Positions 2,202 through 42,036 of a stretch of DNA of 64,000 bases are shown here, piece by piece. How positions within the stretch are numbered: position 1 is the first letter of the stretch; every line of letters starts with the position of its first letter. The position numbers were made by a program, and so were the translations under genes. Under the pieces are notes generated by a model. That model saw only the letters and a program-made list of their open reading frames with translations, had not been told where the DNA came from and searched no databases. Source of the DNA: Gammaproteobacteria bacterium (GTDB lineage: Bacteria > Pseudomonadota > Gammaproteobacteria > Eutrophobiales > Eutrophobiaceae); the NCBI GenBank assembly GCA_021773215.1, contig JAJFKM010000048.1, forward strand, positions 12,923 to 76,922, written 5' to 3'.

Positions 2202-3140
2202 TTACACATTACTGTATCCCGATTGTTTAATCATCTGATAGCCTTTAATAAGCTCCTGAATTCCATCGTCTAACGAAAACGTAGTTTTGAAACCAGTCTT
2301 TTCTATCTTTTCATTCGAAACAATATAATTTCTTTGATCAGGGTCCTTACCTAATTCTTCTTCAAGAAAAATAAATTCTGGTAAATATTTTTGTATTCTT
2401 TCACATAATTCTTTTTTTGATATATTCGTATCAGATAGTCCTACGTTATATATTTCACCCTTCATTGAATCAAAATTTTCAATCCCATGTATAAAAACAC
2501 GGGCCACATCCCTGACATGCAGATAATTTCGTTTAAAATGACTTTCAAATAAAACAACAAATCGGTCATTTACTGCTCGATAGACAAAGTCATTAACCAG
2601 TAAATCTAATCTCATTTTTATTGACATTCCAAACACTGTTGCCAACCTGAAACTAATTGCCTGTCCATGCTCGAGCAATGCCTTTTCTATTTCAACTTTC
2701 TCTATTGCATATTGCGATATTGGATTTAGTTCAGATTCTTCTGTGCAAAAATTATTTTCGTCACCACTACCGTATGCACTGTTTGTTGTGGGCATTAATA
2801 CTCTTTGCTGTTTTGAAAGTAATTTCAGCATTAATTTGATGCCATCCTTATTAACCGTACTGGCACCTACTGGATCTTTTGAACAGATTGGAGCACCTAC
2901 ATAAGCAGCAAGCGGGATAATAAGATCTGACTTTGCCATTAAAGGCTTAATAACTTCTTGCAATCTAATATCACCATTTATCACATTGAAATTCTTGTGA
3001 TTACATTGATGCGCCAGACTATTTTGCTTGTACATAAAATTATCCAACACAGTGATATGGTGGCCCTGTTTTAATAGTTCTGGCACCATGATAGAACCAA
3101 TATAACCTGCTCCTCCTGTGACTAGGATGTTATAACTCAT
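2202..3140 (-). CDS. NAD(P)-dependent sugar epimerase/dehydratase/reductase (extended SDR)
   Basis: N-terminal Rossmann motif ILVTGGAGYIGS and a 312-aa length typical of UDP-/GDP-sugar epimerases or 4-reductases. Confidence 0.8.
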   Translation of the reverse strand: MSYNILVTGGAGYIGSIMVPELLKQGHHITVLDNFMYKQNSLAHQCNHKNFNVINGDIRLQEVIKPLMAKSDLIIPLAAYVGAPICSKDPVGASTVNKDGIKLMLKLLSKQQRVLMPTTNSAYGSGDENNFCTEESELNPISQYAIEKVEIEKALLEHGQAISFRLATVFGMSIKMRLDLLVNDFVYRAVNDRFVVLFESHFKRNYLHVRDVARVFIHGIENFDSMKGEIYNVGLSDTNISKKELCERIQKYLPEFIFLEEELGKDPDQRNYIVSNEKIEKTGFKTTFSLDDGIQELIKGYQMIKQSGYSNV

Positions 3141-3142
3141 GC

Positions 3143-3889
3143 TTATTGTGCTCCTGTACTAATTAGTAAATCATCACTTAAAAACGTTTGTGCTTTATGA
3201 AAATCATCAGGAATACCAATGTCGATAAAGTCTCCATCATCCATAAATCCACAAACATCATGAGTAGAGATGATTGTTGGCAAAATGTCATTCTCAAGAG
3301 ATATACTTTTATTCATGGCATCAGGCCACTCACTAAATAATTCTGAATTTATAATGTATACACCACCATTGATTTCCCCTGGTTCCTCTTTTTCATTTGG
3401 CTGTTCTATTGTGATTAACCTACCAGTCTCATTAACACACATGCGGTGATATCTTCCTGCATTTTCTACCTGTCGTAACGACAAGGACAAGTTAGCCTTT
3501 GAACTAGAATGTAATTTATACATTCGTTCTGGGTCTATCAAAAATAATGTGTCTCCATTAATAAGGAAGAAATCTTTTTCCAGACAGTTTTCATTTAATA
3601 CCTTTAAGAGCGCACCACCTGTACCCAATGGTTTGTCCTCAATGGCATATGTAATTGGTATGCCTTTAAATGTTGAACCAAAATGGTCTATTATTTGTTG
3701 ATGTTTATAACCTACTGATATAATGAAATGACATGCATTATTTTTTATCCAATACGACAATAAATACTCTAGGAAAGGCCTGCTTCGAACAGAAGCCAAA
3801 GGTTTTGGAACGTCATTAACTACTTTCTGTAGTCGTGAGCCTATGCCACCGGCTAGTACGACTACTGTATATCCGGATTTAGTTTCCAT
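3143..3889 (-). CDS. Sugar-1-phosphate nucleotidyltransferase (HddC/GDP-heptose or NDP-hexose pyrophosphorylase-like)
   Basis: N-terminal VVLAGGIGSRLQ...PKPL motif of the NTP_transferase family; 248 aa. Confidence 0.8.
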   Translation of the reverse strand: METKSGYTVVVLAGGIGSRLQKVVNDVPKPLASVRSRPFLEYLLSYWIKNNACHFIISVGYKHQQIIDHFGSTFKGIPITYAIEDKPLGTGGALLKVLNENCLEKDFFLINGDTLFLIDPERMYKLHSSSKANLSLSLRQVENAGRYHRMCVNETGRLITIEQPNEKEEPGEINGGVYIINSELFSEWPDAMNKSISLENDILPTIISTHDVCGFMDDGDFIDIGIPDDFHKAQTFLSDDLLISTGAQ

Positions 3890-3891
3890 CG

Positions 3892-5058
3892 TTACTTAAC
3901 GACACGATCAACTACTGAATGAAAAAACCTTAATTCTTTCTCAATATCTCGTGGATGGTTTCCTACAAAAAATCCTCTGTCATGTGCAATATTGGCGTTA
4001 TCTAGATTGTCTACTATTTCATAATCGAAATACTTAATGACGTCATGCCTAGGGAAACAACCGCCTGTTATTATTCGAAACTGTATATTTTCTTTTCTCA
4101 AGTGTTCAAGGCAATCCCTTCTATCTGTCTTAACTTCAGAACTTAAAATAACAGTGAAAGAAAACCAACTACTCTTCCCATTTTCTTTTTGGATAATAAA
4201 CCTCTGGTCATTATCAAATAATTCAACAAATAGTTCGGCATTTTTACGCCGCGTTTCAATCAAACTATCCAGTTTTTCTAGTTGCTTTAATCCGATTGCG
4301 CCAGACATTTCTAGCGGCCGCGCGTTATAACCTGGAAGAATAAATCTGTAAGCTTCAAAAAAATCATCATCGGATTTATCGTATATCAATGACCCTTCCG
4401 GTACATCACGAGACCATCCATGTGCCCTAATTGATCTCATAAGATGATACAGTTCTTCATTATCTGTAATGATTAAACCACCTTCCATGGTAGAAATGTG
4501 ATGAGAAAAAAAAGTACTGAATGTGCCTATGTCACCAAAAGTACCGGTATATTGGTCATTAATGCTGGCTCCCATAGATTCACAATTATCTTCAAAGAGA
4601 ATTAAGTCGTGTTTGTTACAAAACTTTCTGAGTTTTTCTAGTTCTGCTGGATTCCCAAGAATACTTACCGCCATCACCATTCTTGTTTTTGGTGTTAATG
4701 CTTCCTCTAATTTTGATACATCAATATTCAATGTATTGAGATCGATATCTACAAACTTCAACTTCAGGCCATATTGCTGTAATGGAGTGAAACTTGTTGC
4801 CCACGATATAGCAGGGACAATAACCTCATCTCCACGTTGCAAAGGTTTGTTTGATTTATAAAAAAGTGCCGCAACACTAACAAGGTTCGCCATAGAACCA
4901 GAGCTGACCATTAGACAGTGCTGGCAATTGAATTTTCTAGCGAATGCAGCTTCAAACTCGCTTACCTTTTCACCCATAGTAAAGCGACCACTCTCTACGA
5001 CTTGTTTAATCGCATCAATTTCTTCAGTTCCCCATGAGTCGCTAGCTAATTCGTACAT
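3892..5058 (-). CDS. PLP-dependent sugar aminotransferase/dehydratase (DegT/DnrJ/EryC1/StrS family)
   Basis: 388 aa with N-terminal WGTEEIDAIKQVVESGRFTMGEKVSEFEAAFA, typical of DegT/ArnB/RfbH-type enzymes acting on NDP-4-keto sugars. Confidence 0.8.
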   Translation of the reverse strand: MYELASDSWGTEEIDAIKQVVESGRFTMGEKVSEFEAAFARKFNCQHCLMVSSGSMANLVSVAALFYKSNKPLQRGDEVIVPAISWATSFTPLQQYGLKLKFVDIDLNTLNIDVSKLEEALTPKTRMVMAVSILGNPAELEKLRKFCNKHDLILFEDNCESMGASINDQYTGTFGDIGTFSTFFSHHISTMEGGLIITDNEELYHLMRSIRAHGWSRDVPEGSLIYDKSDDDFFEAYRFILPGYNARPLEMSGAIGLKQLEKLDSLIETRRKNAELFVELFDNDQRFIIQKENGKSSWFSFTVILSSEVKTDRRDCLEHLRKENIQFRIITGGCFPRHDVIKYFDYEIVDNLDNANIAHDRGFFVGNHPRDIEKELRFFHSVVDRVVK

Positions 5059-5076: not shown

Positions 5077-6126
5077 TTATTTATCGTTTGAAATTGTTAA
5101 TTTAATTGCGTCTGCAATTTTTTCACTCGTTGGGTAGTAATATTGCTCTAATGTAAAGCCCGCTGGTGTTGGCGAATCAGGCAGTCCTACTCTACGGACA
5201 GGTGCTTTTAGATATTCAAATGCCTTCTCCGCAACGAGGCATCCCACTTCAGCACATACACCGCCCATAGCCCACCCGGTATCTACGACTAATATTCGTC
5301 CTGTCTTTTTAACTGATTCAATAATAATCTTTTCATCGAGTGGCTTGATAGTTCTAAGATCTATTACATCCGCTGTAACACCCTCCTCAGCTAAACTATC
5401 AAGTGCTATTTGTGCTAATGCAATAGCATGTGATGAACCAACGATTGTCAAGTCTTCGCCTCTAGTACGGTAAATTCCTTCACCTATAGGTATTTTATAG
5501 ATCCCTTCAGGTACATATCCGTTCTGTTTCATTAACCACCGGTGTTCAAAAATTACTACAGGATTGTTATCCGCAATCGCAGACAACATTAAACCTTTTG
5601 CATCATAGGGTGTGCTTGGCATGATAATCTTTAAACCAGGGACGGATAAAAGTAAACCTTGAACCGCTTGTGAGTGTTGCGCACCTGAACCCCAGCCACG
5701 TCCGATCGCAGACCAAATAACCATAGGAACATTCGTATGTCCTTCGTCCATGTAATGCATTTTCGAAGCATGATTCACGAGTTGATTAAATGTTAATAGC
5801 AAAAAATCTGGTCTATTATGCAAATAGACTGGTCGCATACCATTCATCGCAGCACCGGCACACATTCCTGTCATTCCCTCCTCGGATAAAGGAGTATCGA
5901 ATACACGTTCTTCACTAAATTTTTTGTACAAGTCTGTCGTTACCCCAAACATACCAATCGGGTCATTGACGCCTTGACCTAGAATAAAGGCCTTCTTATC
6001 GAGCTCAAGTGCTAAATCAAGTGCTTCATGCAAAGCATCTGTGTATGACAAGTGCCTTTCATTACTATCTGCTAAATTTTCAGAATTATTAGTTTGTGTA
6101 TTTAAAAATGCTTCTGCCCAGGGCAT
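5077..6126 (-). CDS. TPP-dependent 2-oxoacid dehydrogenase E1 component, beta subunit-like (transketolase C-terminal fold)
   Basis: 349 aa; motifs EEGMTGMCAGAAMNGMRP and GLKIIMPSTPYDAKGLM typical of PDH/acetoin dehydrogenase E1 beta. Confidence 0.8.
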   Translation of the reverse strand: MPWAEAFLNTQTNNSENLADSNERHLSYTDALHEALDLALELDKKAFILGQGVNDPIGMFGVTTDLYKKFSEERVFDTPLSEEGMTGMCAGAAMNGMRPVYLHNRPDFLLLTFNQLVNHASKMHYMDEGHTNVPMVIWSAIGRGWGSGAQHSQAVQGLLLSVPGLKIIMPSTPYDAKGLMLSAIADNNPVVIFEHRWLMKQNGYVPEGIYKIPIGEGIYRTRGEDLTIVGSSHAIALAQIALDSLAEEGVTADVIDLRTIKPLDEKIIIESVKKTGRILVVDTGWAMGGVCAEVGCLVAEKAFEYLKAPVRRVGLPDSPTPAGFTLEQYYYPTSEKIADAIKLTISNDK

Positions 6127-6144
6127 GACTATTTTCCTTGGTAA

Positions 6145-7167
6145 TTAATCTGCGTATACGTGTTGCATCAGACTATCTTCTGATGGATTCGGACTACTGA
6201 CAGCGTGATGAAAAGCTTCATCAATCTCAAGCTGCGTCCTATTTTGGAAATCATTAATTGTATTTTCATCAATTAAATTATGATTTTTCATTTCATTTTG
6301 AAGAGTGTGAATCGGGCATATATTCTGCCAACTATCAACCTCATCAAGTCCTCGATATCCTGATTTACTGTCATCGCCCGCACCACCATGCCCACGCAAT
6401 CTATAAGCTACATTTTCAATAAATGTAGGCCCTCCTCCATTTCTAGCTTTTTCAGCGGCTTCCAATACAGTTTCATAGACGAGCAAAAGGTTAGTTGCAT
6501 CTATTTGTTTAGCTTCGATGCCAAAACCTGCCGCTTTGTCAAAGAGCTCAACTGATGCAGGTTGCCGCTTATCAAGAGGTGTACAAACTGAATAAAAATT
6601 ATTTTCACAGAGATATATAATCGGTAATTTTTTTAATATCGCAAAATTAAGTGACTCCCAAAAGGCACCCTCTTCCATTGCGGCATCACCAAAGAACACA
6701 CCTATGACACGGCCTTCATTCTTCATCTTAGAAGCCATCGCTGCACCATTAGCAATCGGCACTATCCCAGAAACTATTGCGGAGGTACTCATCATGCCTA
6801 CACTCTTATCTATCAAGTGCATTGAGCCTCCACGAGAACCACAACAACCATTTGCACGACAAAATAATTCTGACATCATCGCCTTCAGATCACCGCCTTT
6901 TGCCAGATAGTTCCCATGTGTACGATGGCTGCTATAAATATGATCTGTCACTTTAAGAGCAGCACACGCACCAACTGATGTTGCTTCTTGGCCAATCACC
7001 AAATGAATTGGTGATTTCATCTGGTCTTCATGATATTTGGATTCGATCGTTTCCTCTATCATTCTAATTCTTATCATTGAGAATAAGAGATTTAGCAGTA
7101 ATTCTTTAGAATACTTATTGATATCAGTATTCGAATATCCTTGCCCTTTGTATTTGTATTTAACCAT
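6145..7167 (-). CDS. TPP-dependent 2-oxoacid dehydrogenase E1 component, alpha subunit-like
   Basis: 340 aa; motifs SHRTHGNYLAKGGD and GDAAMEEGAFWESLNFA (TPP-binding GDG-like region) as in PDH/AcoA E1 alpha. It is paired with the E1 beta gene. Confidence 0.8.
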   Translation of the reverse strand: MVKYKYKGQGYSNTDINKYSKELLLNLLFSMIRIRMIEETIESKYHEDQMKSPIHLVIGQEATSVGACAALKVTDHIYSSHRTHGNYLAKGGDLKAMMSELFCRANGCCGSRGGSMHLIDKSVGMMSTSAIVSGIVPIANGAAMASKMKNEGRVIGVFFGDAAMEEGAFWESLNFAILKKLPIIYLCENNFYSVCTPLDKRQPASVELFDKAAGFGIEAKQIDATNLLLVYETVLEAAEKARNGGGPTFIENVAYRLRGHGGAGDDSKSGYRGLDEVDSWQNICPIHTLQNEMKNHNLIDENTINDFQNRTQLEIDEAFHHAVSSPNPSEDSLMQHVYAD

Positions 7168-8186
7168 TAGGACACCCCGGAAACTTTTCCGTTAACTTTA
7201 TCGGGTTTATAGTAAACAATTCGTGAACCTTCTCTTTCAAAACTAAAAGGTACATAAATCAATTTGTTGAGTTTTTCTTTAACTATTTTTTGTTTTTCTT
7301 TTGGAACATAAAATAAAATAAATCCACCGCCACCTGCACCAAGTAATTTCCCACCTATAGCACCAGCATTTTTTGCAACTTTGTAAATTTCATCGATATA
7401 CTCAGTGCTGACCCCGTCGGATAAAATTTTCTTAAGTTTCCATGTTTCATCAAGTAGAAGGCCAAAATCATCTAAAAAACCAGAACCTGAATTTAATATT
7501 TTTATTGCATCATCAACATGGCTATAAATTTCTCTTAATTCTTGCACTCGATTATTGATATTTTCAATTTTTTTCTTTTCAATTTCTGAAGCTGTTCTTG
7601 AAATGCCGGTGAAAAACAACATCAAGTTTTCTTGTAAATGATGAATGCGCTCACTTGAAACCACCATTGGTTTTACAGCATGCGTCCCATCAGCATTAAA
7701 AACTATATGGTTAAGTCCTCCGTGTGCTACCGCTAGTTGATCTTGTGACCCTACATTTTCTTTAATTATATTTTGTTCTACGTGTATTGCTTCATCACCC
7801 AACTCTTCAGATGACTTGTATTTACCTTTTAAAGCATAAATTGAATTAAGTAAACCCACTGTAAAAGACGAGCTTGACCCTAAGCCCGATCTAGCAGGCA
7901 AGTCACCATCATGATGAATTTCCAAGCCTTGATCACATTTTAATTCTTCTAATATTGCCTTTACAGAAGGATGTTTAATTTCAGAGTAATGCTGAACATT
8001 CTCAATTAATGAATAAACAATCCTATATTTGTGCTGGAAAAATGGGGGAAGATAACGACAACTAATATAACAATATTTATCTATGGCACTCGATAATACT
8101 TGCCCACCATTCTCCAAATACCAATCGGGCAAGTCGGTGCCGCCACCAAAAAATGACACTCTAAATGGTGTTTTGCTAATAATCAT
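7167..8186 (-). CDS. GHMP-family sugar kinase (HddA/heptose-7-P kinase or galacto/fucokinase-like)
   Basis: N-terminal PFRVSFFGGGTDLPDWY matches GHMP sugar kinases of the HddA type. The GHMP ATP motif is GLGSSSSFTVGLL. Its start overlaps the E1 alpha stop. Confidence 0.75.
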   Translation of the reverse strand: MIISKTPFRVSFFGGGTDLPDWYLENGGQVLSSAIDKYCYISCRYLPPFFQHKYRIVYSLIENVQHYSEIKHPSVKAILEELKCDQGLEIHHDGDLPARSGLGSSSSFTVGLLNSIYALKGKYKSSEELGDEAIHVEQNIIKENVGSQDQLAVAHGGLNHIVFNADGTHAVKPMVVSSERIHHLQENLMLFFTGISRTASEIEKKKIENINNRVQELREIYSHVDDAIKILNSGSGFLDDFGLLLDETWKLKKILSDGVSTEYIDEIYKVAKNAGAIGGKLLGAGGGGFILFYVPKEKQKIVKEKLNKLIYVPFSFEREGSRIVYYKPDKVNGKVSGVS

Positions 8187-9688
8187 TTATATAGCGCCCG
8201 TGCTAATTTAACTTCAACCATGTTTTGAACATGGCTATAAACATCATCGCCAAATTTAGTCTTCACCAGATCTAGATAACGTTTATTTGTGAAATACTTT
8301 GTAAACGCCTCATCTCGAAACTTTAGGACTTCTGCTGCGGATATATGTTCTGTTGGTAATGGCTGAGTTTCATAACTATGCTGCGAATAACCAATCCAGT
8401 TATCAGGCAACTTCCATTCTTGTTTCTTAGCGTACAGATACAATGGAGAACCAGGATATGCCATGGCTGAATAAAAATTGGCAAATTCGCAATTTGCTTC
8501 AATTGCCATGTCCAAAGTCTCTTGCATTGTATTTAAATCATCATCCGGCAATCCAAAAATATAATTGCCAATAACATTAATATTTGCGTCTTTAATCTTT
8601 CCAATAATGTTCAGAATATCACTTGTCCCAAAACGACCTTTTTCCACACCATCACGAACATGTTTACTAGCAGACTCTATTCCTAATGCTAACCATCTGA
8701 TGCCAGCTGCTCGTAGACTCTCCAGATATTCATCTTTAATAGTATCAATTCGAGCATACGCCCAAATATTAAGATCATACCCTCGATCTATTATTCTTTC
8801 GCATATCCCAAGCACATGATTTTTATTCAGCACAAACATTTCATCAACAATTTTTATATTTTTTATACCGTAATCATTAACCAGAATATCAATTTGACCT
8901 ATAATGTTATCGGGCGACCACATTCGATATGATGACTTACCAAATGGGGCATTAATACAGCAGAAGCTACAATGATAGGGACAACCAAGACTCGTATGTA
9001 TTGATGCATAAGGTTGCCTATGGTTGATATCTTCAAAACAGTGCCAATTGTGTGCCCTATACTTTTCCATTGGCAATAGATCAAGTGCAGGTTCTGGCAT
9101 GGCACTATCCAAATCAGAAATCAATTGTCCCGGCTTCGTAAACTTTATTTTATTATTATCGTAATAATAAAGACTAGGAACATCAGAAAAACCAGCATTA
9201 TTATTCAAATTTTCCATTACCTGAAAAATTGTCTCAGGCCCTTCACCACTACAAACAAAATCAACATCTTCTTCTCTCAATGTTTGTTCTGGCAATGCAG
9301 CGGGATGTGTACCTGTCATTAATATCTTAGTATCAGGCAATAATTTTTTAATTGCTGTGCAGGTAACACTTGCAGCAGGCATATTCTGTGTCGAAGCAGA
9401 AGGCTGGTATCCATACACAACCATAACAATCAAGACAGGATTAAAATGCTTTGATATGATTTCAGCAACTTGTTCCGGGGATAAGCCAAATGCAGGAGCA
9501 TCTATAATATCGACAGACGCTTTTTTATTTCTCATATAACTTGCAAACAACGCAATTAAACTAGGTGTTTCAATTGCAGAAAGATTTGATGCTAGATTCT
9601 GATATACAGCATGCAAATTCCCGGGATTAATGAAGACAATATCGATGTCTTCACGGTCTTTTATTGTTAATTCATCTAGTGTCTTCAT
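8183..9688 (-). CDS. Cobalamin-binding radical SAM enzyme (class B radical SAM, probable C-methyltransferase)
   Basis: 501 aa. N-terminal B12-binding-like domain (DIVFINPG...) followed by CxxxCxxC (SLGCPYHCSFCC). Its stop overlaps the GHMP kinase start by 4 bp. Confidence 0.75.
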   Translation of the reverse strand: MKTLDELTIKDREDIDIVFINPGNLHAVYQNLASNLSAIETPSLIALFASYMRNKKASVDIIDAPAFGLSPEQVAEIISKHFNPVLIVMVVYGYQPSASTQNMPAASVTCTAIKKLLPDTKILMTGTHPAALPEQTLREEDVDFVCSGEGPETIFQVMENLNNNAGFSDVPSLYYYDNNKIKFTKPGQLISDLDSAMPEPALDLLPMEKYRAHNWHCFEDINHRQPYASIHTSLGCPYHCSFCCINAPFGKSSYRMWSPDNIIGQIDILVNDYGIKNIKIVDEMFVLNKNHVLGICERIIDRGYDLNIWAYARIDTIKDEYLESLRAAGIRWLALGIESASKHVRDGVEKGRFGTSDILNIIGKIKDANINVIGNYIFGLPDDDLNTMQETLDMAIEANCEFANFYSAMAYPGSPLYLYAKKQEWKLPDNWIGYSQHSYETQPLPTEHISAAEVLKFRDEAFTKYFTNKRYLDLVKTKFGDDVYSHVQNMVEVKLARALYK

Positions 9689-9689
9689 C

Positions 9690-10739
9690 TTAGTAGGCTA
9701 TTGAGTCAATTTTATTTCTTCTAAACATATTATAGGTTTTAGATACAAACATACCGAACGCCGTCTTTATCATAAAAAAGTGTCCTGCGAACCTTACGAA
9801 ATATTTAATTCTTATAATTAATGGGAGCCCTTTATCTCCAAGGAAATTATCGTGAAACCACCTGCAACAATTTAAATAATTCTTATGCCTATCACTTAAT
9901 GTATAAGTATCATTAATTAATGGCACTTCAGTATTTTCAATAATTGATTGCAACCGTGCTGCCTGCAACTCTCTCAAGTCACGTAATGAAATAAACGCAA
10001 AATCATCATGGCAGTCAGTTCGTTGAAAAGATTCGTTATTATCATGGTGTGAATTTAACTTTAGGTGCGTAAATTTAATATCAGCTAAATAGATTATTCT
10101 TTCGTAGGATTTATTTACCAATCTCTTAAACACATCCATTAAATGTGTGTCAATGAACAATCGTTTATATAATGGTGGGTACGGATAGACCAATGCTTCA
10201 CATGTTTTACGCGATAAAATAGGGAAAGTACTTAATTTGTCCTGATTAAACCCATCATTAGGATAAGCAAGGTATATCTCATCATCAATTTTATCTATTT
10301 CTTTTATTAATAATTTATCCCAGTTACTGGTTTCTATAATGACATCATCATTTATCAACATTATAATGTTTCCAGAACAGTATCGATAGCAAACAGAATT
10401 ATATTGCCCCATAGTTAATCTTGGACCGATTATTTTTAATATGCTTACATCCTCGTTCACAAATTCACGAGTTGATGAATCATCGTCATCCACGTAAATT
10501 ACCACTTCAATATATTCTAGATTACACGACTTTCTAATCAGGCTTTGAAACAATCTATCCAGATGTTCTATTCTATTTCTTGTTGGTAACAATAATGAAA
10601 TTTTTATTTTCTTATCTTTTTTATAATTATGTCTTTCGATAAGAAGATCCAAACTGTCATAATCAGATATATCGGCAAGCTTATCTTTCAGATTATTTTT
10701 ATCATGATAATTTGATTTTGAATTCAACATTAATAGCAC
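9690..10739 (-). CDS. Glycosyltransferase (GT-A fold, family 2-like)
   Basis: KISLLLPTRNRIEHLDRLFQSL followed by the acidic cluster YVDDDD; 349 aa. Confidence 0.6.
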   Translation of the reverse strand: MLLMLNSKSNYHDKNNLKDKLADISDYDSLDLLIERHNYKKDKKIKISLLLPTRNRIEHLDRLFQSLIRKSCNLEYIEVVIYVDDDDSSTREFVNEDVSILKIIGPRLTMGQYNSVCYRYCSGNIIMLINDDVIIETSNWDKLLIKEIDKIDDEIYLAYPNDGFNQDKLSTFPILSRKTCEALVYPYPPLYKRLFIDTHLMDVFKRLVNKSYERIIYLADIKFTHLKLNSHHDNNESFQRTDCHDDFAFISLRDLRELQAARLQSIIENTEVPLINDTYTLSDRHKNYLNCCRWFHDNFLGDKGLPLIIRIKYFVRFAGHFFMIKTAFGMFVSKTYNMFRRNKIDSIAY

Positions 10740-10754
10740 CTAAGCATTTTTCTC

Positions 10755-11330
10755 TTATCTCTTTTCCCAAAGGATTAATTGAGTACGTTGTTCTAATTGT
10801 GGCTTGAGATTCTTATATTCTTCTAATGTTAAGCATAGTGTTCGTATCTTTCTTTCAATATATTTTTCAGTTTTATCAACTAAATCTTCAAGGTTAGCAG
10901 TATCAATATCACCAACGAGAACCAAATCAATCAATCCAGTGTCTTTTCCCTGAGCATAGTCATCAATCAAAAATGCTTGCTTTAAATTTCCCAATCGCTC
11001 CAGAATGCTTTCAAGGATCTGGTCCATGCCGAGTGCTTTTTTTACCATGGAATGTAATTCAGGAAATAACGCGTGGTCATTATTTGCCTGATAATAGATA
11101 TTCCTACCTTTTTTATGGCATGAGATCAGATCAGCATCGCAGAGTTGTCGCAGCTCTTCCGACACCTGACTTGATGAAATGTTAAATTCATTTGAGAGTT
11201 CTCTAAGATAAGCTTGCTGCTCATAATTCAAGAATAATCTCATAAGAATTTTGATTCTGGTTTTTGATGTAATTAAACCGGAAAAGATAGACACATATCC
11301 ACCACTAGTTCGTTCTGTATTTAAGAACAA
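10755..11330 (-). CDS. Winged helix-turn-helix transcriptional regulator (ArsR-like N-terminus) with uncharacterized C-terminal domain
   Basis: N-terminal IKILMRL...YLRELSNEFNISSSQVSEELRQLCDADLI resembles an ArsR/HTH_20 DNA-binding domain; 191 aa. It is embedded between GT genes. Confidence 0.5.
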   Translation of the reverse strand: MFLNTERTSGGYVSIFSGLITSKTRIKILMRLFLNYEQQAYLRELSNEFNISSSQVSEELRQLCDADLISCHKKGRNIYYQANNDHALFPELHSMVKKALGMDQILESILERLGNLKQAFLIDDYAQGKDTGLIDLVLVGDIDTANLEDLVDKTEKYIERKIRTLCLTLEEYKNLKPQLEQRTQLILWEKR

Positions 11331-11500: not shown

Positions 11501-12715
11501 TTACTTCTCACTACAAATTTTGTCGATCAACTTAGTGTATCTGCTACTTACCAACTGCCAATCAAATTTTTCTCTCGCTTTTTGCCTTCCTGTAGAAGCT
11601 AGTTTTCTTGAATACGTTTTATCCATCAATAACGTGATGATTTGTTTTGCTAAATCATCTGAGTTCCCAGGAGTAAATAATAAACCTGATATATTATGTT
11701 CTATAACCTCTTTAATAGGTTCTAGCGCAGAAGCGATCACTGCACAACCACAGCCTAATGCCTCGATTGTTACTAATCCAAGACCTTCTCTGTCACCTTG
11801 TGGGTCAATGATGGATGGTATAACTGCTATATTTGCAGATGAATATAGATCTGGTAATTCAGTATTTGAAACACCACCATAGATCTTCACATTATCATCT
11901 AGTAATAATTTTCTTATTTTACTATCAACCTCACCACGCAACGGCCCATCTCCTACGAGGATCAATTCAACCGATGGAACTGAATCTTTAACCAATGATA
12001 TTGCATCGATCAATACATGAATTCCCTTTTTCGCTACAAATCTTCCAACAAAAATAATTTTATTGTCTTGTCTTTCTATATTTACTGAAGGGATAAACAA
12101 ATCTTGTAAATCTACACCCATAGGTGAAACACTGATCTTATTTGTCGTTAATTCCAGGTTTTTGCAATCATTTTTCATTGCCTCACTCACAACACATAAG
12201 TGTGTACAATTTTTAGCCGTCCATTTTTTTAGCCATTGCATGAGTCCGCCATTAAAGGCATAAAGATCCCCCCCGTGTGAAGTACAAAGAACGGGGGGTT
12301 TAGTTTTAGTGAAAAACTTGATTATAAAAACACAAATAAGTGATTGAGGTATTAACCAGTGAGAGTGAAGAAGATCGTATTTTTGATTTTTTAGCCTATT
12401 TATAATCGTGATAGATTGAAATAGTAAAAAGAAAGGCACTAAAAAATAATTTAATTTTTTATTTTTAAGATTCGCATTAATACCTCCATTATACGCCAAT
12501 GTCTGGAAGCTATCTGTAAAGTACTTGTATCGATAAACATTTACTCCTTCCATTGTTTCATGCCGTTTTGCACCATACGCATGTGGTGCTATGACATCAA
12601 CTTTAAAGCCACAACGTACATAATGTTTTGATAATTCATAAACGAAAGGGGGAGTTGCATCGTTTTTCCATCGTGGGAATGTTGAAGTGACGACAAGTAG
12701 AGACTTCCTATCCAC
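11501..12715 (-). CDS. Glycosyltransferase family 4 (GT-B fold)
   Basis: 404 aa; C-terminal EALGCGCAVIASALEPIKEVIEH matches the GT4/RfaG-like E-x7-E region. Confidence 0.75.
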   Translation of the reverse strand: MDRKSLLVVTSTFPRWKNDATPPFVYELSKHYVRCGFKVDVIAPHAYGAKRHETMEGVNVYRYKYFTDSFQTLAYNGGINANLKNKKLNYFLVPFFLLFQSITIINRLKNQKYDLLHSHWLIPQSLICVFIIKFFTKTKPPVLCTSHGGDLYAFNGGLMQWLKKWTAKNCTHLCVVSEAMKNDCKNLELTTNKISVSPMGVDLQDLFIPSVNIERQDNKIIFVGRFVAKKGIHVLIDAISLVKDSVPSVELILVGDGPLRGEVDSKIRKLLLDDNVKIYGGVSNTELPDLYSSANIAVIPSIIDPQGDREGLGLVTIEALGCGCAVIASALEPIKEVIEHNISGLLFTPGNSDDLAKQIITLLMDKTYSRKLASTGRQKAREKFDWQLVSSRYTKLIDKICSEK

Positions 12716-12739: not shown

Positions 12740-13651
12740 TCAATTATCATCTTTCTGATTTTTACTATAAATCAGAAAAGTAATTTGTTCCGATAATAAA
12801 CCTATCAAAAAAACAAGAATTGAAGTCAAGAACAATAAAGCACTCATATTAGTAAATCTTTCAAGGTAATAATATGTGTAGGCATAATAGCTAAGTCCTG
12901 TAATAAAAACGGCAAAACTAGCAGGACCAAATATTTTGAGCGGAGAGTATAATGCAGTGATTCTAAAAATTATCAATAAAAATCTAATCCCATCTTTTAC
13001 TAATTTAATGTGACTAGTACCAGTTCGTTTCTCGCAACTGATTGGAACATATTTAATGCTGTATCCAGATCGAAAAAAAGCCATAGTAATGGTTGTTGGA
13101 TAAGAAAAACCATTCGGCAATAAATATAAAAAGTTTTTAAACATATTTGCTTTCACAGCTCTAAAGCCAGAAGTTAAATCAAGTATTTTATGTCCTGACA
13201 TATAACTGGCTAGCTTATTATAAAACAGATTAGCTATATACCTTGGAAAGCTCGTTTGAGATTTCTTATTCCGAGCGCCAATAACCATATCGTTTCCATT
13301 GTCAATTTCAGCAAGAAATTTTTTAATGTCTTCTGGCGAGTGCTGACCATCTGCATCCATAAAAACCAATATGTCACCAGTTGCCGTGCGCGCACCTGCT
13401 TTTATCGCTGCACCATTTCCTTTTGAATACGGATGGCTAATTACTTTTACAGCATGACTATTACAAATCTCGATTGTGTCATCTTCGGAACCATCATTGA
13501 CAACTAGGATTTCTGCTTCTGGACAACAAGCACGTATTCGAGGCAATAATTTATTTAATGATTCTCCCTCATTTTTTGCTGGCAAGATAATACTGACTGA
13601 TGTTTCCATTTTTATAGAATCATTCATTTTCCTGAATAGGTCTTTGTTCAA
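12740..13651 (-). CDS. Polyprenyl-phosphate sugar transferase (GT2, ArnC/GtrB/DPM1-like)
   Basis: VSIILPAKNEGESL...ILVVNDGSEDDT...VFMDADGQH are hallmark ArnC/DPM1 motifs. It has C-terminal TM helices and overlaps the downstream-upstream GT-C gene by 32 bp. Confidence 0.8.
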   Translation of the reverse strand: MNKDLFRKMNDSIKMETSVSIILPAKNEGESLNKLLPRIRACCPEAEILVVNDGSEDDTIEICNSHAVKVISHPYSKGNGAAIKAGARTATGDILVFMDADGQHSPEDIKKFLAEIDNGNDMVIGARNKKSQTSFPRYIANLFYNKLASYMSGHKILDLTSGFRAVKANMFKNFLYLLPNGFSYPTTITMAFFRSGYSIKYVPISCEKRTGTSHIKLVKDGIRFLLIIFRITALYSPLKIFGPASFAVFITGLSYYAYTYYYLERFTNMSALLFLTSILVFLIGLLSEQITFLIYSKNQKDDN

Positions 13652-15530
13652 TCATTGAAATTTGCTCTATTAATTTATTGTAAACCCAACTATTTCCTTG
13701 CTGCTCAAAACTATACAACAACTCGTTTTTTCTTATTTCAGCCTCACTAGCTTTACCTAAACTAGATAATATCTTTATTTCTCTAATCTTCTTTTCAATA
13801 CTGGGATATAAATTATCTGATAAACGTAAGTATTCTAAGGCTTTTATGAAATTACCGCTAAATATTTCAAGTCCTGATAAATAATCATAAAATTGTGCAT
13901 GGTTAACATTGTCATATTTATGATTATTTATCAGGTGATTTATTAAGTTTTTTAATTTTTCTACATCAATTATCGGGCATTTATTTTTAAGTACTTGCAA
14001 TGTCAGATTATCAAGAACAACGACAACATTAAACCCAGTTGGAATACTCACATCTGCAATATTATAGAATTCATTCCAATCTTCATCAACGCTCCTCAAG
14101 CCCCTTATACAATTATCCAGTTTTATCTGCTCAGCATAGGGGTAGAATGATTTGGGACTAAGTTTTTTTAAATCCTCAATAATCAGTCGGGCTTGTTCAT
14201 GATCTTTATTTATTTTCAGATTATAAAGATCAGTTTTAGCTCTGATAGAATCAGGTTGATTTCTGGCCCATTCATTTATTTGTAATGCAGGTTTCGACCA
14301 AAGATCTACCTCGATCACTGTAATAGCTAATATCAAACCGCAATACATGAAAGCTGTTAAAATAATCCATAGACGATGCTTGACTATTGTGGACAAATAA
14401 ATAAAGCCACAGGAAATGCCTAATATTAGGCTAAAGGAAGGTAGGTAATTCCTATGTTCAAAATAAGGTTCCAGATTCAAATAGGTCGATTCAAGCAAAT
14501 GTCCACCCAGAAACCAAAGTATTGCAAAACTATATATAGGCTGCGACTTTCTTTTTATCAAGGCTGTTGTGAGTAGCGTCAACAATATAATCCCACTTAA
14601 CATAAACCTACTCGAATAAATACTCCTTACGATTTCATAATTATCATGATACAAACTGAATGAAGATGGACTTGGTAATAGAATATTCTTTATGTATTCA
14701 GCCAAAACAACAACTTCAGTAAGTATTTTTTCTATAACTCCATAATCCTTAAAAGCATAACCATATAGATTCGCCTCGAATTTAAATGCAAGATAAATAA
14801 TCAATAGCGTTAATGGCGATATCAAGAAAAACATTGTCCAATGAGACCAGTATTTTGGTCTCTGCAAATGCATCAGGATCGTTATTTCCAAAGATAAAAT
14901 ATAAATCAGTAAAAGGATTCCATTTTCTTTACATAGAATCGCCAACGCTGTAAAAAATAAAATTAATCCGCCAGTGAGACAATCTTTATATAAACTCTGT
15001 CTGTCTGCATGTTTTAACCTCATGAGGAGATAGGTCAAAACACCGAGTAACATAAAAAACGTAGACAATAATGTCATCCGTTGAATCACATACAAGGTCG
15101 TTGTTAACTGAATAGGGTGCAGCAACCACAAGCCTGTGACAATTATTGGGATGTACTTTCGAAATGTGCCCTCTTTAAATAATATAGTTAGATAAGCACT
15201 GATAATGTAGATCAAACATCCATTTAGAAGATGAATGCCCAGATTAACTAACTTAAAATCAAACGGCGCACTAGGCCAACTTTCATGTTGTAAGGCGAAC
15301 GTTACTAAAGATAATGGCCTACCAGAAGGTCCTGCAATATCGGTAGCAAATATAAAATAAGGAAACCCATAAGTCTTTATGGTGTCCAAATCACGCAAAT
15401 TAGAAAAATCATCTAGTAAAAAACGACTATCCAATCCTGGCCAATAGATCAATGTTGTTAGCATCAATAAGCAAAGCAACATCATAAACTGCCAACGATT
15501 AATAGTTGGTTTTTCTTTAATCATTATCAT
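13620..15530 (-). CDS. GT-C fold membrane glycosyltransferase with C-terminal TPR-like domain (PMT/ArnT/TfpW-like)
   Basis: 636 aa with about 11 predicted TM segments. There is an acidic LLDDFSN motif in the first extracytoplasmic loop and a C-terminal soluble region of about 200 aa with TPR-like repeats. It lies immediately downstream of pilA. Confidence 0.65.
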   Translation of the reverse strand: MIMIKEKPTINRWQFMMLLCLLMLTTLIYWPGLDSRFLLDDFSNLRDLDTIKTYGFPYFIFATDIAGPSGRPLSLVTFALQHESWPSAPFDFKLVNLGIHLLNGCLIYIISAYLTILFKEGTFRKYIPIIVTGLWLLHPIQLTTTLYVIQRMTLLSTFFMLLGVLTYLLMRLKHADRQSLYKDCLTGGLILFFTALAILCKENGILLLIYILSLEITILMHLQRPKYWSHWTMFFLISPLTLLIIYLAFKFEANLYGYAFKDYGVIEKILTEVVVLAEYIKNILLPSPSSFSLYHDNYEIVRSIYSSRFMLSGIILLTLLTTALIKRKSQPIYSFAILWFLGGHLLESTYLNLEPYFEHRNYLPSFSLILGISCGFIYLSTIVKHRLWIILTAFMYCGLILAITVIEVDLWSKPALQINEWARNQPDSIRAKTDLYNLKINKDHEQARLIIEDLKKLSPKSFYPYAEQIKLDNCIRGLRSVDEDWNEFYNIADVSIPTGFNVVVVLDNLTLQVLKNKCPIIDVEKLKNLINHLINNHKYDNVNHAQFYDYLSGLEIFSGNFIKALEYLRLSDNLYPSIEKKIREIKILSSLGKASEAEIRKNELLYSFEQQGNSWVYNKLIEQISMIEQRPIQENE

Positions 15531-15646: not shown

Positions 15647-16075
15647 TTACTTACAAGCGCCTGGTAACAATGAACCGGGAATATTACCCGCATTACAAAC
15701 CCATTGTTTTCCGTCAGTACTTGACATTATGAATGTGCTACTCACAATCTTTGAGTTAACACCAGTAGCTTTCATAGTAGCCGTCATTGTGACTGCTGGA
15801 GCGGTACCGGTTAGAACGATAGTATTAACGTACTTACCTTGATCAGTACCACCGACTGCTGTCACGGTAGCAGGAACAGAACCAACGTCCGAGATATATT
15901 CAACCAAAGGCGTTTTCAGACCAGAAGTCAGTGACATGGCTTCAGAAACTTGCGCACGCGCCGTATAATCAGAGTACGCGGGTATGGCAACTGCCGCTAA
16001 AATACCGATAATCGCGATAACGATCATCAATTCAATAAGAGTAAAACCTTTTTGTAACTTATGCATTGGAAACAT
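15647..16075 (-). CDS. pilA: Type IV major pilin (T4a, PilA/PilE-like)
   Basis: MKLQKGFTLIELMIVIAIIGILAAVAIPAY is a class III leader with the G/F cleavage site and Glu+5. It is 142 aa with a C-terminal disulfide loop C...C-K. An AAGGAGA Shine-Dalgarno lies 6 nt upstream. Confidence 0.95.
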   Translation of the reverse strand: MFPMHKLQKGFTLIELMIVIAIIGILAAVAIPAYSDYTARAQVSEAMSLTSGLKTPLVEYISDVGSVPATVTAVGGTDQGKYVNTIVLTGTAPAVTMTATMKATGVNSKIVSSTFIMSSTDGKQWVCNAGNIPGSLLPGACK

Positions 16076-16130
16076 CTCCTTAATTAGTTATTTATAAAAC
16101 ATCATCAATATTGATTAACAAGTATAACCT

Positions 16131-16147
16131 AGCAGAGTTCATGCCAG
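16131..16147 (-). promoter_or_regulatory. Sigma-54 (-24/-12) promoter of pilA
   Basis: The minus strand reads CTGGCATGAACTCTGCT against the consensus YTGGCACG-N4-TTGCW, with correct GG-N10-GC spacing. It lies about 55 nt upstream of the pilA ATG. The PilR sigma-54 activator is encoded nearby. Confidence 0.65.
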
Positions 16148-16411
16148 CAAATGAACGCTGTTAAGACACTGATTTTAATGACATTATATATTTTAACACA
16201 TTACATTTTGTCTGAAAGTGACCATTATCGTCATCTTTTGACGTCAGCATAGGTTCTAATCATACTCTTAATTCTCACTTTCCCGTTCCTGACAATAGAC
16301 TAGTCGGGATACCCGTCGAGACAATATAATAATCTCAGGATTACCCACTCACCGCTATTTGCATAGCAAAATGCTATACACGATCTTTATATTCACATCA
16401 CATAATGCCAT

Positions 16412-40874: not shown

Positions 40875-41056
40875 ATAAGATTATTTATTGTCCTATTTGC
40901 AAAAATACTACCAGATTAGATAGTTCCAACCAACATCGACCTTTTTGCTCTGATCGTTGTCGGTTAATAGACTTGGGCAAATGGGTTGATGAAAAATACG
41001 GTATTGCTGATGCATCCACAGTTGATGACGAACAAACCCATCCTGAAATACATTAA
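40862..41056 (+). CDS. yacG: DNA gyrase inhibitor YacG (zinc finger)
   Basis: CPICKNT...CSDRCRLIDLGKW, 64 aa. Confidence 0.85.
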   Translation: MHIMNKIIYCPICKNTTRLDSSNQHRPFCSDRCRLIDLGKWVDEKYGIADASTVDDEQTHPEIH

Positions 41057-42036
41057 TCTATACGAAAATTTATACTTTTTACTAGTGAATCTTCATTCCA
41101 AACCCCTCCAAGCATAGCAATACCATAGGCGCCATAGTTTTTTGCAGTCTTAAGATCGGTAGGCATCATCCCACCTAGTGCATATATCGGAAAATTTACT
41201 TCCTTAATGAGACTTCTAAATCTTTCCCAACCAATCGCAATAACATCAGGATGACTAGCCGTATGTTGAACAGGAGATAAAAATGCATAGTTAACTTTTA
41301 TCTCAGCCGCTTTAATCAATTCTTCTTCATTATGGCAAGAGGCGCCTAATATATATTCTTCACTTATAGGTCTATTGTCATGCCTCATTAACTCATTAGC
41401 ATTAAAGTGGACACCATCAATTGGATATTTATCTATGTCTGTTGCCAAACCATTTAGAATTATTTTTGAATTATATTTATCCGCTACTTCACTTAGTTTT
41501 TTTACAATTTTCTGAATCGACTTATTCTTATCTATTTTCAATCTTAGTTGAAAAATCTTTAATCCCGCAATAAAACACTCTTCCGTAACCAAATATAAAT
41601 GTGAATAGTTTTCGTATGATTCTTTACTAATGACGTACATCGGGGACAATGATATCGATTGGATGATATATTTATTCGCATCAGGAAACTTATACTTATT
41701 AAGTTCATGTATACTTACCCAACAAAACTCCTGATTTTCTCTACTTTCAGGTATACCAGACCAATCCGTTACCTTCCATACATCAAGTAAAACTTTTTTA
41801 TTCGGATAGTCATGACTTACCGATGTAAATGTCTCTGCCTTACTTACAACTATTCCTAATTCTTCAAATAGCTCACGCTTTAAAGCAGTCTCAACATCTT
41901 CATTAGATTCAACCTTGCCGCCAGGAAATTCCCAGTAACCAGCTAGATGTTGATTTCTTAAACGTTTTGAAATTAACACTTTATCTTTTGTTGTGTTATA
42001 TATAACACCAACTGCGACATGTGTTCGTTGAGTCAT
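41053..42036 (-). CDS. mutT: Bifunctional MutT-like Nudix hydrolase / thiamine-phosphate synthase (ThiE/TenI)-like protein
   Basis: N-terminal Nudix box GGKVESNEDVETALKRELFEELG. The C-terminal ~200 aa have a TMP-TENI-like fold ending ALGGM. Confidence 0.8.
   Translation of the reverse strand: MTQRTHVAVGVIYNTTKDKVLISKRLRNQHLAGYWEFPGGKVESNEDVETALKRELFEELGIVVSKAETFTSVSHDYPNKKVLLDVWKVTDWSGIPESRENQEFCWVSIHELNKYKFPDANKYIIQSISLSPMYVISKESYENYSHLYLVTEECFIAGLKIFQLRLKIDKNKSIQKIVKKLSEVADKYNSKIILNGLATDIDKYPIDGVHFNANELMRHDNRPISEEYILGASCHNEEELIKAAEIKVNYAFLSPVQHTASHPDVIAIGWERFRSLIKEVNFPIYALGGMMPTDLKTAKNYGAYGIAMLGGVWNEDSLVKSINFRID

Follow-up and report, generated by a model that had tools for sequence, protein, structure and literature searches.

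A two-subunit E1-type enzyme in a conserved GDP-heptose cassette is a candidate sugar-branching carboligase

Introduction

What do the two subunits of a 2-oxoacid dehydrogenase E1 component do in the middle of a sugar operon? This question is raised by a locus of a Gammaproteobacteria bacterium of the family Eutrophobiaceae, in which an E1 alpha subunit (E1a) and an E1 beta subunit (E1b) are encoded at positions 5077 to 7167 of a 64,000-nucleotide stretch of contig JAJFKM010000048.1 (assembly GCA_021773215.1, positions 12,923 to 76,922). This whole stretch is referred to as the window. The SecA encoded in it is 93% identical to that of 'marine bacterium B5-7', which points to an uncultured gammaproteobacterium of marine origin. 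From its letters alone, a preliminary description had proposed that the pair puts a two-carbon unit from pyruvate on a nucleoside diphosphate (NDP)-ketosugar. According to our analysis, the pair most likely forms a C-C bond within a conserved cassette for GDP-heptose tailoring and works outside any 2-oxoacid dehydrogenase complex. The earlier proposal is supported by the composition of this cassette, by the clade to which E1a belongs and by the ketosugar-forming enzymes encoded around the pair, and it is from these that we infer the reaction itself.

Domains and residues of the E1 pair

E1a, a thiamine diphosphate (ThDP)-binding protein of 340 aa (6145-7167), and E1b with 349 aa (5077-6126) are encoded on the minus strand in a tightly packed operon. 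Their genes are 18 nt apart, the stop of the GHMP kinase gene overlaps with the start of E1a, and the stop of a radical SAM gene overlaps with the start of the kinase gene. E1a covers the full Pfam profile E1_dh (PF00676, E=4.9e-65, 220 bits), and E1b consists of the Pfam domains Transket_pyr (PF02779, E=1.4e-31) and Transketolase_C (PF02780, E=2e-32). The ThDP/Mg motif of E1a, G160-D161-A-A-M-E-E-G ... E188-N189-N190, has its counterpart in GDGAANQG...ENN of human PDHA1, which bears out the earlier report of an E1 alpha gene with a GDAAMEEG motif lying back to back with an E1 beta gene. In alignments, H260 of E1a corresponds to human His263, and E82 and H151 of E1b correspond to beta-Glu59 and beta-His128 of Geobacillus stearothermophilus. 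The motif and the catalytic residues are unchanged in all 75-83 orthologues compared. Such a two-subunit E1 architecture with intact ThDP/Mg motif and catalytic residues is also that of the E1-type (alphaKADH2) branching enzymes, while the E1_dh/transketolase-like domains of the pair are not the TPP_enzyme_N/M/C set of the YerE/ErwE fold.

The closest solved structures are human pyruvate dehydrogenase (PDH) E1 alpha for E1a (153 bits) and G. stearothermophilus PDH E1 beta for E1b (219 bits). Neither subunit reaches the equivalog score of its NCBIfam match, E1a having 290 bits to TIGR03182 PDH_E1_alph_y (cut-off 394) and E1b 288 bits to NF006667 (cut-off 321). Several invariant residues specific to the subfamily sit near the conserved active-site motifs. 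In E1b these are W138 (Arg in all outgroups) and M199 (Tyr in all). Two further family-specific residues of E1b are G52 (in place of Asp) and H119 (in place of Gln), and the four residues replaced are invariant in E1b proteins linked to a dihydrolipoamide acyltransferase (E2). In E1a, C103 and S111 take positions at which every outgroup has Gly, and instead of the PDHA1 phosphorylation loop there is the loop R-G-H-G-G-A-G-D-D (256-266). These replacements mark the cassette E1a and E1b as a candidate subfamily of their own.

Independence from E2 and E3

Using BLASTP with 4 E2 queries and 3 queries for dihydrolipoamide dehydrogenase (E3), no homologue was found at E<=1e-5 among all open reading frames (ORFs) of at least 80 aa in the 64 kb of the window. 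Neither component appeared in the Pfam annotation of the larger ORFs, which include pilSR, pilA, pilBC, SecA, ArgJ, ClpB, GDH, NadE, SucCD and a mur/fts cluster, in agreement with the earlier statement that the window holds no E2 or E3 gene. E2/E3 homologues were likewise absent from 85 related cassette loci (1.32 Mb, about 10 kb around the pair). Plasmid-borne E1a homologues of Priestia, Acinetobacter, Agrobacterium and Phaeobacter, with 34-41% identity, have E2 and lpdA (E3) directly adjoining. Apart from a cassette on plasmid pDMC1 of Solidesulfovibrio magneticus, plasmid homologues are at most 43% identical and most of them are E2/E3-linked.

In a simple neighbour-joining tree, the E1a proteins of the cassette form a clade with 100/100 bootstrap support. 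Nearest to it are the E1a of the S. magneticus cassette and an E1a without E2 from a Streptomyces plasmid polyketide synthase/non-ribosomal peptide synthetase locus. E2/E3-linked E1a and human PDHA1 are placed on the opposite side of the tree, and the aco-type E1a of Thermus and Acinetobacter also fall outside the clade. A firm grouping with acetoin or pyruvate dehydrogenases that have partner E2/E3 genes, named in the preliminary description as one of two outcomes that together would speak against sugar branching, was not seen in this tree. Compared with 1.84 billion representatives at 50% identity, E1a matched one full-length cluster with 417 bits, and the following families reached at most 320 bits, leaving a gap of about 100 bits.

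For the next-nearest E1a subfamilies, all five informative contexts (5/5) are glycan loci. The gene orders, given with SDR for short-chain dehydrogenase/reductase, NTP for nucleotidyltransferase and GT for glycosyltransferase, are SDR-NTP-GHMP-E1a, HldE-like-SDR-E1a-E1b, GT4-Bac_transf-E1a-E1b, Bac_transf-aldo/keto reductase-E1a-E1b-GTs-Wzx and GHMP-E1a-E1b-GTs-C-methyltransferases. Because these contexts are all glycan loci, we posit that E2-less E1 pairs in polysaccharide loci form a broad clade that is little described in the literature found.

More distant E2-less E1 pairs, with 41-46% identity, are located in other glycan loci, namely L095 (a contig of an ENA metagenome), L097 and L098. 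One of these pairs, possibly an ADP-heptose version, has as neighbours an SDR and a bifunctional HldE-like kinase/adenylyltransferase. Another belongs to a Wzx-type locus, in which it lies by genes for a pyruvyl transferase and an aldo/keto reductase, and a third adjoins sugar C-methyltransferases.

Sugar enzymes encoded next to the pair

The SDR gene (2202-3140, minus strand, as are all genes of the cassette) encodes a putative Cj1427-like GDP-heptose C4-dehydrogenase with 373 bits to PDB 6VO6 (E=8.5e-111). The 6VO6 sequence, which we take to be Cj1427, is the 313-aa Campylobacter jejuni SDR located between capsule epimerase/reductase genes and hddA-gmhA2-hddC. In addition to this similarity, the window SDR shares with Cj1427-type enzymes its heptose neighbours, and in related loci genes for GmhA and for the L-2-hydroxyglutarate oxidase LhgO are found beside it. 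As read from its sequence (TTNSAYG), the Asp/Glu pair typical of 4,6-dehydratases is missing, and the 4-ketone would therefore be made by oxidation, with the C6 hydroxyl kept. The SDR had also been considered as the missing 4,6-dehydratase, which was ruled out by the absent Asp/Glu pair and by the Cj1427 orthology.

The best NCBIfam and PDB matches of two further enzymes belong to heptose activation. The GHMP kinase (7167-8186) resembles the heptose-7-phosphate anomeric kinase HddA (134 bits, cut-off 600), and its top PDB matches are the heptose kinases 3K85, 4N3O and 4USK (about 119 bits). The sugar-1-phosphate nucleotidyltransferase (3143-3889) resembles the GDP-heptose enzyme HddC (162 bits, cut-off 300), with the HddC entries 5XHW and 6JQ8 as top PDB matches. 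According to these similarities and to the Cj1427 orthology, the predicted substrate is a GDP-heptose, not a hexose, and the kinase and nucleotidyltransferase are the putative HddA/HddC pair.

The preliminary description had placed the E1 genes between a GHMP sugar kinase and a DegT aminotransferase. The kinase was confirmed and the second gene (3892-5058) does belong to the DegT family, but it encodes a ColD-type sugar 3-dehydratase dependent on pyridoxal/pyridoxamine phosphate (PLP/PMP) rather than an aminotransferase. The protein has 439 bits (E=1.5e-130) to ColD of E. coli O55 (2GMS), a GDP-4-keto-6-deoxymannose 3-dehydratase. Its motif FFSHHISTMEGG pairs with FYSHHIATMEGG of ColD and shows His-His (SHH) where aminotransferases have the Schiff-base Lys. 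The first His of this pair is changed in the PDB ColD variants 3B8X and 2R0T. Every cassette orthologue of the dehydratase has kept His-His, and Lys is found in none. An aminotransferase acting on the acetyl branch, which had been considered for this gene, was ruled out by the replacement of Lys by His. These corrected identities of the neighbours strengthen the earlier idea of sugar branching. No ketoreductase was found in the cassette of the window, where a ColC-like 4-ketoreductase is also absent.

Conservation of the cassette

A scan of one genome per species returned 309 species with a relative, of which the best 80 were examined. Close relatives of E1a (at least 54% identical) number in the hundreds in metagenomes. 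Synteny was counted in the 50 related loci that span at least 15 kb (long loci); genes were called crudely, as greedy non-overlapping ORFs compared by BLAST with named queries, and many loci are truncated contigs of metagenome-assembled genomes. The set of radical SAM enzyme, GHMP kinase, E1a, E1b, dehydratase, nucleotidyltransferase and SDR is seen again and again, with 50-80% identity, across 80 or more species from many phyla. E1a, E1b and the Cj1427-like SDR are present in every long locus (50/50 each), followed by the GHMP kinase (49/50), the B12-binding radical SAM enzyme (47/50), the ColD-like dehydratase (41/50) and the HddC-like nucleotidyltransferase (34/50). Most loci without the ColD-like enzyme contain an RfbH-like dehydratase that also has His-His, giving a total of about 50/50 loci with a His-type 3-dehydratase.

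The RfbH-like enzymes were seen in a second arrangement, the Nitrospinota-type loci (L001, L009, L010, L013, L015, L028, L036 and L048), with the order radical SAM-E1a-E1b-SDR-GHMP-NTP-dehydratase-Fcl-like. Their dehydratase is only about 29% identical to the ColD-like enzyme of the window, which suggests that the same step is filled by a different lineage of the DegT family.

Several accessory genes recur with the cassette. A GDP-fucose-synthase-like (ColC-like) SDR is found in 24 of the 50 long loci and GmhA in nine. An L-2-hydroxyglutarate oxidase (533 bits, cut-off 299), which is absent from the window, is encoded in 10 of the 50 and adjoins the SDR in most of them (for example L052, 1401-2621, and L035, L039, L045, L051 and L068). 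Its position beside the SDR implies recycling of the L-2-hydroxyglutarate made by a ping-pong dehydrogenase. Further recurrent genes encode NUDIX proteins, GT2 glycosyltransferases, polyprenyl-phosphate GT2 and polytopic membrane proteins. In the window, an accessory NUDIX hydrolase (1624-2193, PF00293) represents a type found in 13/50 long loci, and a GT2-like glycosyltransferase (GT2x, 9690-10739, weak match to PF00535) travels with the cassette, which it adjoins in 13/50. The accessory genes fit heptose and 2-oxoglutarate chemistry.

Carriers of the cassette include Nitrospina gracilis, Leptospirillum ferriphilum and members of the Nitrospinota, Methylococcales, Burkholderiales, Vicinamibacterales, Verrucomicrobiota, Bdellovibrionales, Elusimicrobia and Dehalococcoidia, as well as Simkania. 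The groups covered also comprise Gamma- and Betaproteobacteria, Acidobacteriota, Chlamydiota and Bdellovibrionota. The only plasmid member is the diverged cassette of pDMC1 from Solidesulfovibrio magneticus RS-1 (L086, 21954-38996 of the record), with an E1a of 42% identity. It is complete, is flanked by IS66 transposases and includes DedA/VTT, two GT2, a PMT-type GT-C and lhgO, the latter farther downstream (L086, 20371-20957). Flanking genes are named 'GDP-L-fucose synthase', 'phospholipid carrier-dependent glycosyltransferase' and 'lhgO' by PGAP. The plasmid copy with its IS66 elements points to horizontal mobility of the cassette.

A branching role of such an E1 pair in a Gram-negative surface glycan had been called unusual in the preliminary description. 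This holds for the literature found, in which E1-type branching enzymes are described for actinomycete antibiotics only, and full-text searching of the literature for this combination of genes brought up no account of the heptose cassette. Genomically it does not hold, as the cassette is widespread.

Predicted pathway and alternative explanations

Based on these assignments, we propose a pathway in which the HddA-like kinase and the HddC-like nucleotidyltransferase would lead toward GDP-heptose, with GmhA and GmhB supplied from elsewhere in the genome. The Cj1427-like SDR would then oxidize C4, its bound NADH being re-oxidized by 2-oxoglutarate, and the ColD-like enzyme would take off the 3-OH to give GDP-3-deoxy-4-keto-D-glycero-heptose. 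Given the orthology to characterized enzymes, these three steps should apply. Turnover of the ColD-type enzyme presumably yields 2-oxoglutarate from glutamate, and this is the co-substrate of the Cj1427-type enzyme. In the fourth step, E1a and E1b together (E1ab) would decarboxylate pyruvate on ThDP and transfer an acetyl-anion equivalent to the C4 carbonyl, so that a 4-C-acetyl tertiary alcohol, a branched nonose, would be formed. We infer this step from the genomic context and by analogy, both with YerE and with the E1-type branching enzymes of actinomycetes. Since the cassette of the window has no ketoreductase, carboligation stands as the one evident fate of the C4 ketone. The cluster also resembles those of alphaKADH2 enzymes in that NDP-ketosugar-forming enzymes (the Cj1427 and ColD orthologues) are encoded without E2 or E3. 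The B12-binding radical SAM enzyme may subsequently alter the branched product, by methylation or ring closure, and the product may be passed on to glycosyltransferases and either the Wzm/Wzt exporter or a polyprenyl-phosphate/GT-C route. We consider it probable that E1ab is a ThDP carboligase that adds an acetyl branch at C4 and that the radical SAM enzyme then acts on its product.

Several points weigh against this proposal. The roles within the cassette are predicted from the genes, and the order of the E1ab and radical SAM steps, the donor 2-oxoacid and the attacked position are assumed. The kinase and the nucleotidyltransferase score far below the HddA and HddC cut-offs, and neither GmhA nor GmhB is encoded in the window. 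For these reasons, the heptose assignment is drawn mainly from the Cj1427 orthology and from the synteny elsewhere. A lipoylated E2 could be located outside the 64 kb. The neighbour-joining tree covers the E1a of the cassette, E2-less and E2/E3-linked homologues and human PDHA1, and membership of the pair in the characterized branching clade (AviB1/B2, AlmDI/DII and KbDH) is putative.

Such an E2 would matter most if the pair served a conventional dehydrogenase complex for pyruvate, acetoin or branched-chain 2-oxoacids, with the E2 and E3 genes at another place in the genome and an incidental position of the E1 genes in a sugar operon. The top PDB and NCBIfam matches are indeed PDH E1 subunits, both active-site histidines of reductive acylation are kept, and our data on this genome cover the window. 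However, both PDH cut-offs are missed, the synteny with sugar enzymes extends over more than 80 species from many phyla, in loci that have no E2/E3 close to the pair, and the clade stands apart from E2/E3-linked homologues, with E2-linked invariants replaced (Arg by Trp138, Tyr by Met199). We find an ordinary E1 at this site scarcely credible. ThDP acyloin chemistry is reversible, and the pair might instead cleave, like acetoin:DCPIP oxidoreductase, as which some sources annotate its homologues. It would then take a C2 unit off an alpha-hydroxyketone sugar, for example one made by the radical SAM enzyme. Cutting beside C4, however, would leave the GDP-sugar with an opened pyranose ring, no C2 acceptor (lipoyl-E2) is encoded nearby, and the position of the aco-type E1a in the tree speaks against a close relationship with the cassette enzymes. 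Cleavage thus appears very unlikely.

The pair could also build or rearrange a carbon skeleton in another way. One such role would be that of a 1-deoxy-D-xylulose 5-phosphate (DXP) synthase or a transketolase, with a sugar in free or phosphorylated form as the substrate, ahead of its activation by a nucleotide; this is in line with the distant similarity of E1b to DXS (71 bits) and transketolase (57 bits). The modest similarity of the kinase to known heptose kinases likewise leaves room for a new sugar as its substrate, and the gene order, which differs between lineages, gives no clue to the order of reactions. A 1-deoxy-2-ketose of the DXS type, on the other hand, would lack the anomeric OH of an aldose on which an HddA-type kinase acts, and the Cj1427-like and ColD-like enzymes work on GDP-sugars and leave a ketone in need of a consumer. 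Other variants keep the addition to a ketosugar but assume a different donor (hydroxypyruvate or 2-oxobutyrate), an un-deoxygenated GDP-4-keto-heptose or attack at another position; E1-type enzymes are apparently limited to C2 donors (PMC12247030). Taken together, we regard these variants as unlikely and prefer the transfer of an acetyl branch to C4.

The radical SAM enzyme and the product

The B12-binding radical SAM enzyme (501 aa, 8183-9688, PF02310 and PF04055) has its top NCBIfam matches in HpnJ (157 bits) and BchE (146 bits). Its scores to the cobalamin methylases TsrM, CysS, TokK, GenK and Fom3 are 21-29 bits in PDB and 47-99 bits in NCBIfam comparisons. HpnJ and BchE are non-methylating enzymes, and both are associated with the formation of five-membered carbocycles. 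This allows a speculative and rather improbable reading, in which the cassette would yield a caryose-type carbocyclic nonose (4,8-cyclo-3,9-dideoxy-nonose) activated with GDP. The carbon count of caryose is matched exactly, with C1-C7 from the heptose, the 3-deoxy position from the ColD-like enzyme, and the tertiary alcohol at C4 with its acetyl group (C8 and C9) from E1ab. The HpnJ/BchE-like enzyme would join C7 and C8 to a cyclopentane, with C7-H adding across the C8 carbonyl in a radical reaction that is redox-neutral. Methylation by the radical SAM enzyme is the obvious alternative to ring closure. If true, the caryose-type route would account for the missing ketoreductase in the cassette of the window. 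The biosynthesis of caryose, the origin of which was stated as unknown in 2022 (PMC9092360), would be solved as well, and carbocyclic sugars would turn out to be widespread in uncultured bacteria.

Other products and hosts were considered and dropped. Erwiniose, as a heptose with radical SAM methylation and a C2 branch, was ruled out by its known route, in which the YerE-like ErwE joins a CDP-3,6-dideoxyhexose and a C5 2-oxoacid (PMC9306805). For bradyrhizose, no matching gene functions were given in the literature found on this sugar. A link to the Coxiella burnetii O-antigen was abandoned, as E1 genes are not mentioned in the Coxiella lipopolysaccharide (LPS) literature found and CBU_0678 is HldE-like, not HddA/HddC-like.

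Genomic surroundings and possible glycan target

The genes surrounding the cassette are all on the minus strand. Downstream lie a Wzm-like ABC-2 permease (736-1548, PF01061) and the start of a Wzt-like ATPase that runs off the window (about 730-1; Walker A GKNGSGKST in the translation of 1-735). On the upstream side, family matches identify an ArsR-like regulator (10755-11330), a GT4 (11501-12715) and an AglJ/ArnC-like polyprenyl-phosphate GT2 (12740-13651), followed by a polytopic membrane protein of 636 aa (13620-15530) for which no family match was obtained. The upstream gene order is identical in the closest locus (L005). The ArsR/SmtB-type helix-turn-helix protein in the middle of the glycan operon has a C-terminal extension of about 100 aa and is found with 73% identity at the same position in L005.

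Directly past the 636-aa protein is pilA (15647-16075). Upstream of pilA, genes encode a TMEM260-like protein of the protein O-mannosyltransferase type (16412-18409), a spermine-synthase-like membrane protein of 664 aa (18474-20468) and a GT2 with a GtrA_TM domain (20529-21629). On both sides, pilA is accompanied by a pair of a polyprenyl-phosphate GT2 and a large polytopic membrane protein, with pilR and pilS just beyond (block 15647-24656). These surroundings suggest O-glycosylation of pilin or another protein. As the target of the sugar, a polysaccharide that leaves through the ABC transporter and a periplasmic acceptor, for instance pilin, are both conceivable. Unrelated to the cassette, the gene at 41053-42036 (minus strand) encodes a fusion of an N-terminal NUDIX (MutT-like) domain with a C-terminal thiamine-phosphate-synthase-like (TMP-TENI) domain.

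Implications

If our proposal is true, the cassette represents a new enzyme combination in carbohydrate biosynthesis, consisting of a Cj1427-type oxidase, ColD, an E1 carboligase and a B12-radical SAM enzyme. Its predicted product is a branched and possibly carbocyclic sugar with nine or ten carbons, which would be new for these organisms. The hypothesis can be tested directly, as the predicted substrate has already been made enzymatically. The cassette could also be a source of new biocatalysts for tertiary alcohols. The automatic names 'pyruvate dehydrogenase E1', 'acetoin oxidoreductase' and 'DegT aminotransferase' mislead for hundreds of genomes.

Comparison with known systems

With the E1 heterotetramers of PDH and acetoin dehydrogenase, the pair shares the fold, the ThDP motif and the catalytic Glu and His. 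It differs from them in scoring below the family cut-offs, in having no E2/E3, in forming a separate clade and in its altered invariant residues. The colitose pathway (ColD and ColC) is related through the dehydratase with its catalytic His and through the ColC-like gene of many related cassettes. In contrast to this pathway, the window has no GDP-mannose 4,6-dehydratase and no ColC-like reductase, and the 4-ketone would arise by Cj1427-type oxidation with the C6 hydroxyl kept.

Closest in the early steps is the capsular heptose pathway of C. jejuni (Cj1423-Cj1430, with the C3-dehydratase of HS:5), which shares HddA, HddC, GmhA, Cj1427 and a ColD-like C3-dehydratase. In vitro, Cj1427 and the C. 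jejuni C3-dehydratase form GDP-D-glycero-3-deoxy-4-keto-heptose (PMC10680097), a 3-deoxy-4-keto-heptose that Raushel and co-workers regard as non-natural in C. jejuni (PMC10680097). There the ketone is resolved by epimerases and C4-reductases, and neither an E1 pair nor a B12-radical SAM enzyme is present.

The chemistry proposed for the pair resembles that of YerE and ErwE in yersiniose, erwiniose and caryophyllose, sugars of LPS and lipooligosaccharides, where a PMP/PLP 3-dehydratase is likewise followed by ThDP-dependent acyl addition at C4. In yersiniose synthesis, YerE adds the pyruvate-derived C2 unit to a 3-deoxy-4-keto NDP-sugar (PMC9306805). YerE-type enzymes are single-chain, acetolactate-synthase-like members of the decarboxylase superfamily acting on CDP-3,6-dideoxyhexoses, whereas the window enzyme has the two-subunit E1 fold and a predicted GDP-heptose substrate. 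The resemblance is one of analogy, not homology.

The alphaKADH2 enzymes of aldgamycin/aldgarose, avilamycin (AviB1/B2), kosinostatin and kibdelomycin (KbDH-alpha/beta) are, like the window pair, alpha/beta E1 proteins without E2/E3 encoded in an NDP-ketosugar cluster. They transfer a C2 unit from pyruvate onto a ketone to give a tertiary alcohol, as proposed for aldgamycin among others and as found in vitro for KbDH-alpha/beta, and about 120 biosynthetic gene clusters with alphaKADH2 are cited in the same review (PMC12247030). According to this review, branched sugars of the LPS type are made by YerE-like enzymes and those of secondary metabolites by E1-type enzymes, these being the antibiotics of actinomycetes (PMC12247030). 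An E1-type enzyme inside a surface-glycan pathway would cross this split. The window pair belongs to a surface-glycan cassette of Gram-negative and other environmental bacteria instead of an actinomycete antibiotic cluster, its predicted substrate is a GDP-heptose instead of a TDP-6-deoxyhexose, and it is almost always partnered by a B12-binding radical SAM enzyme.

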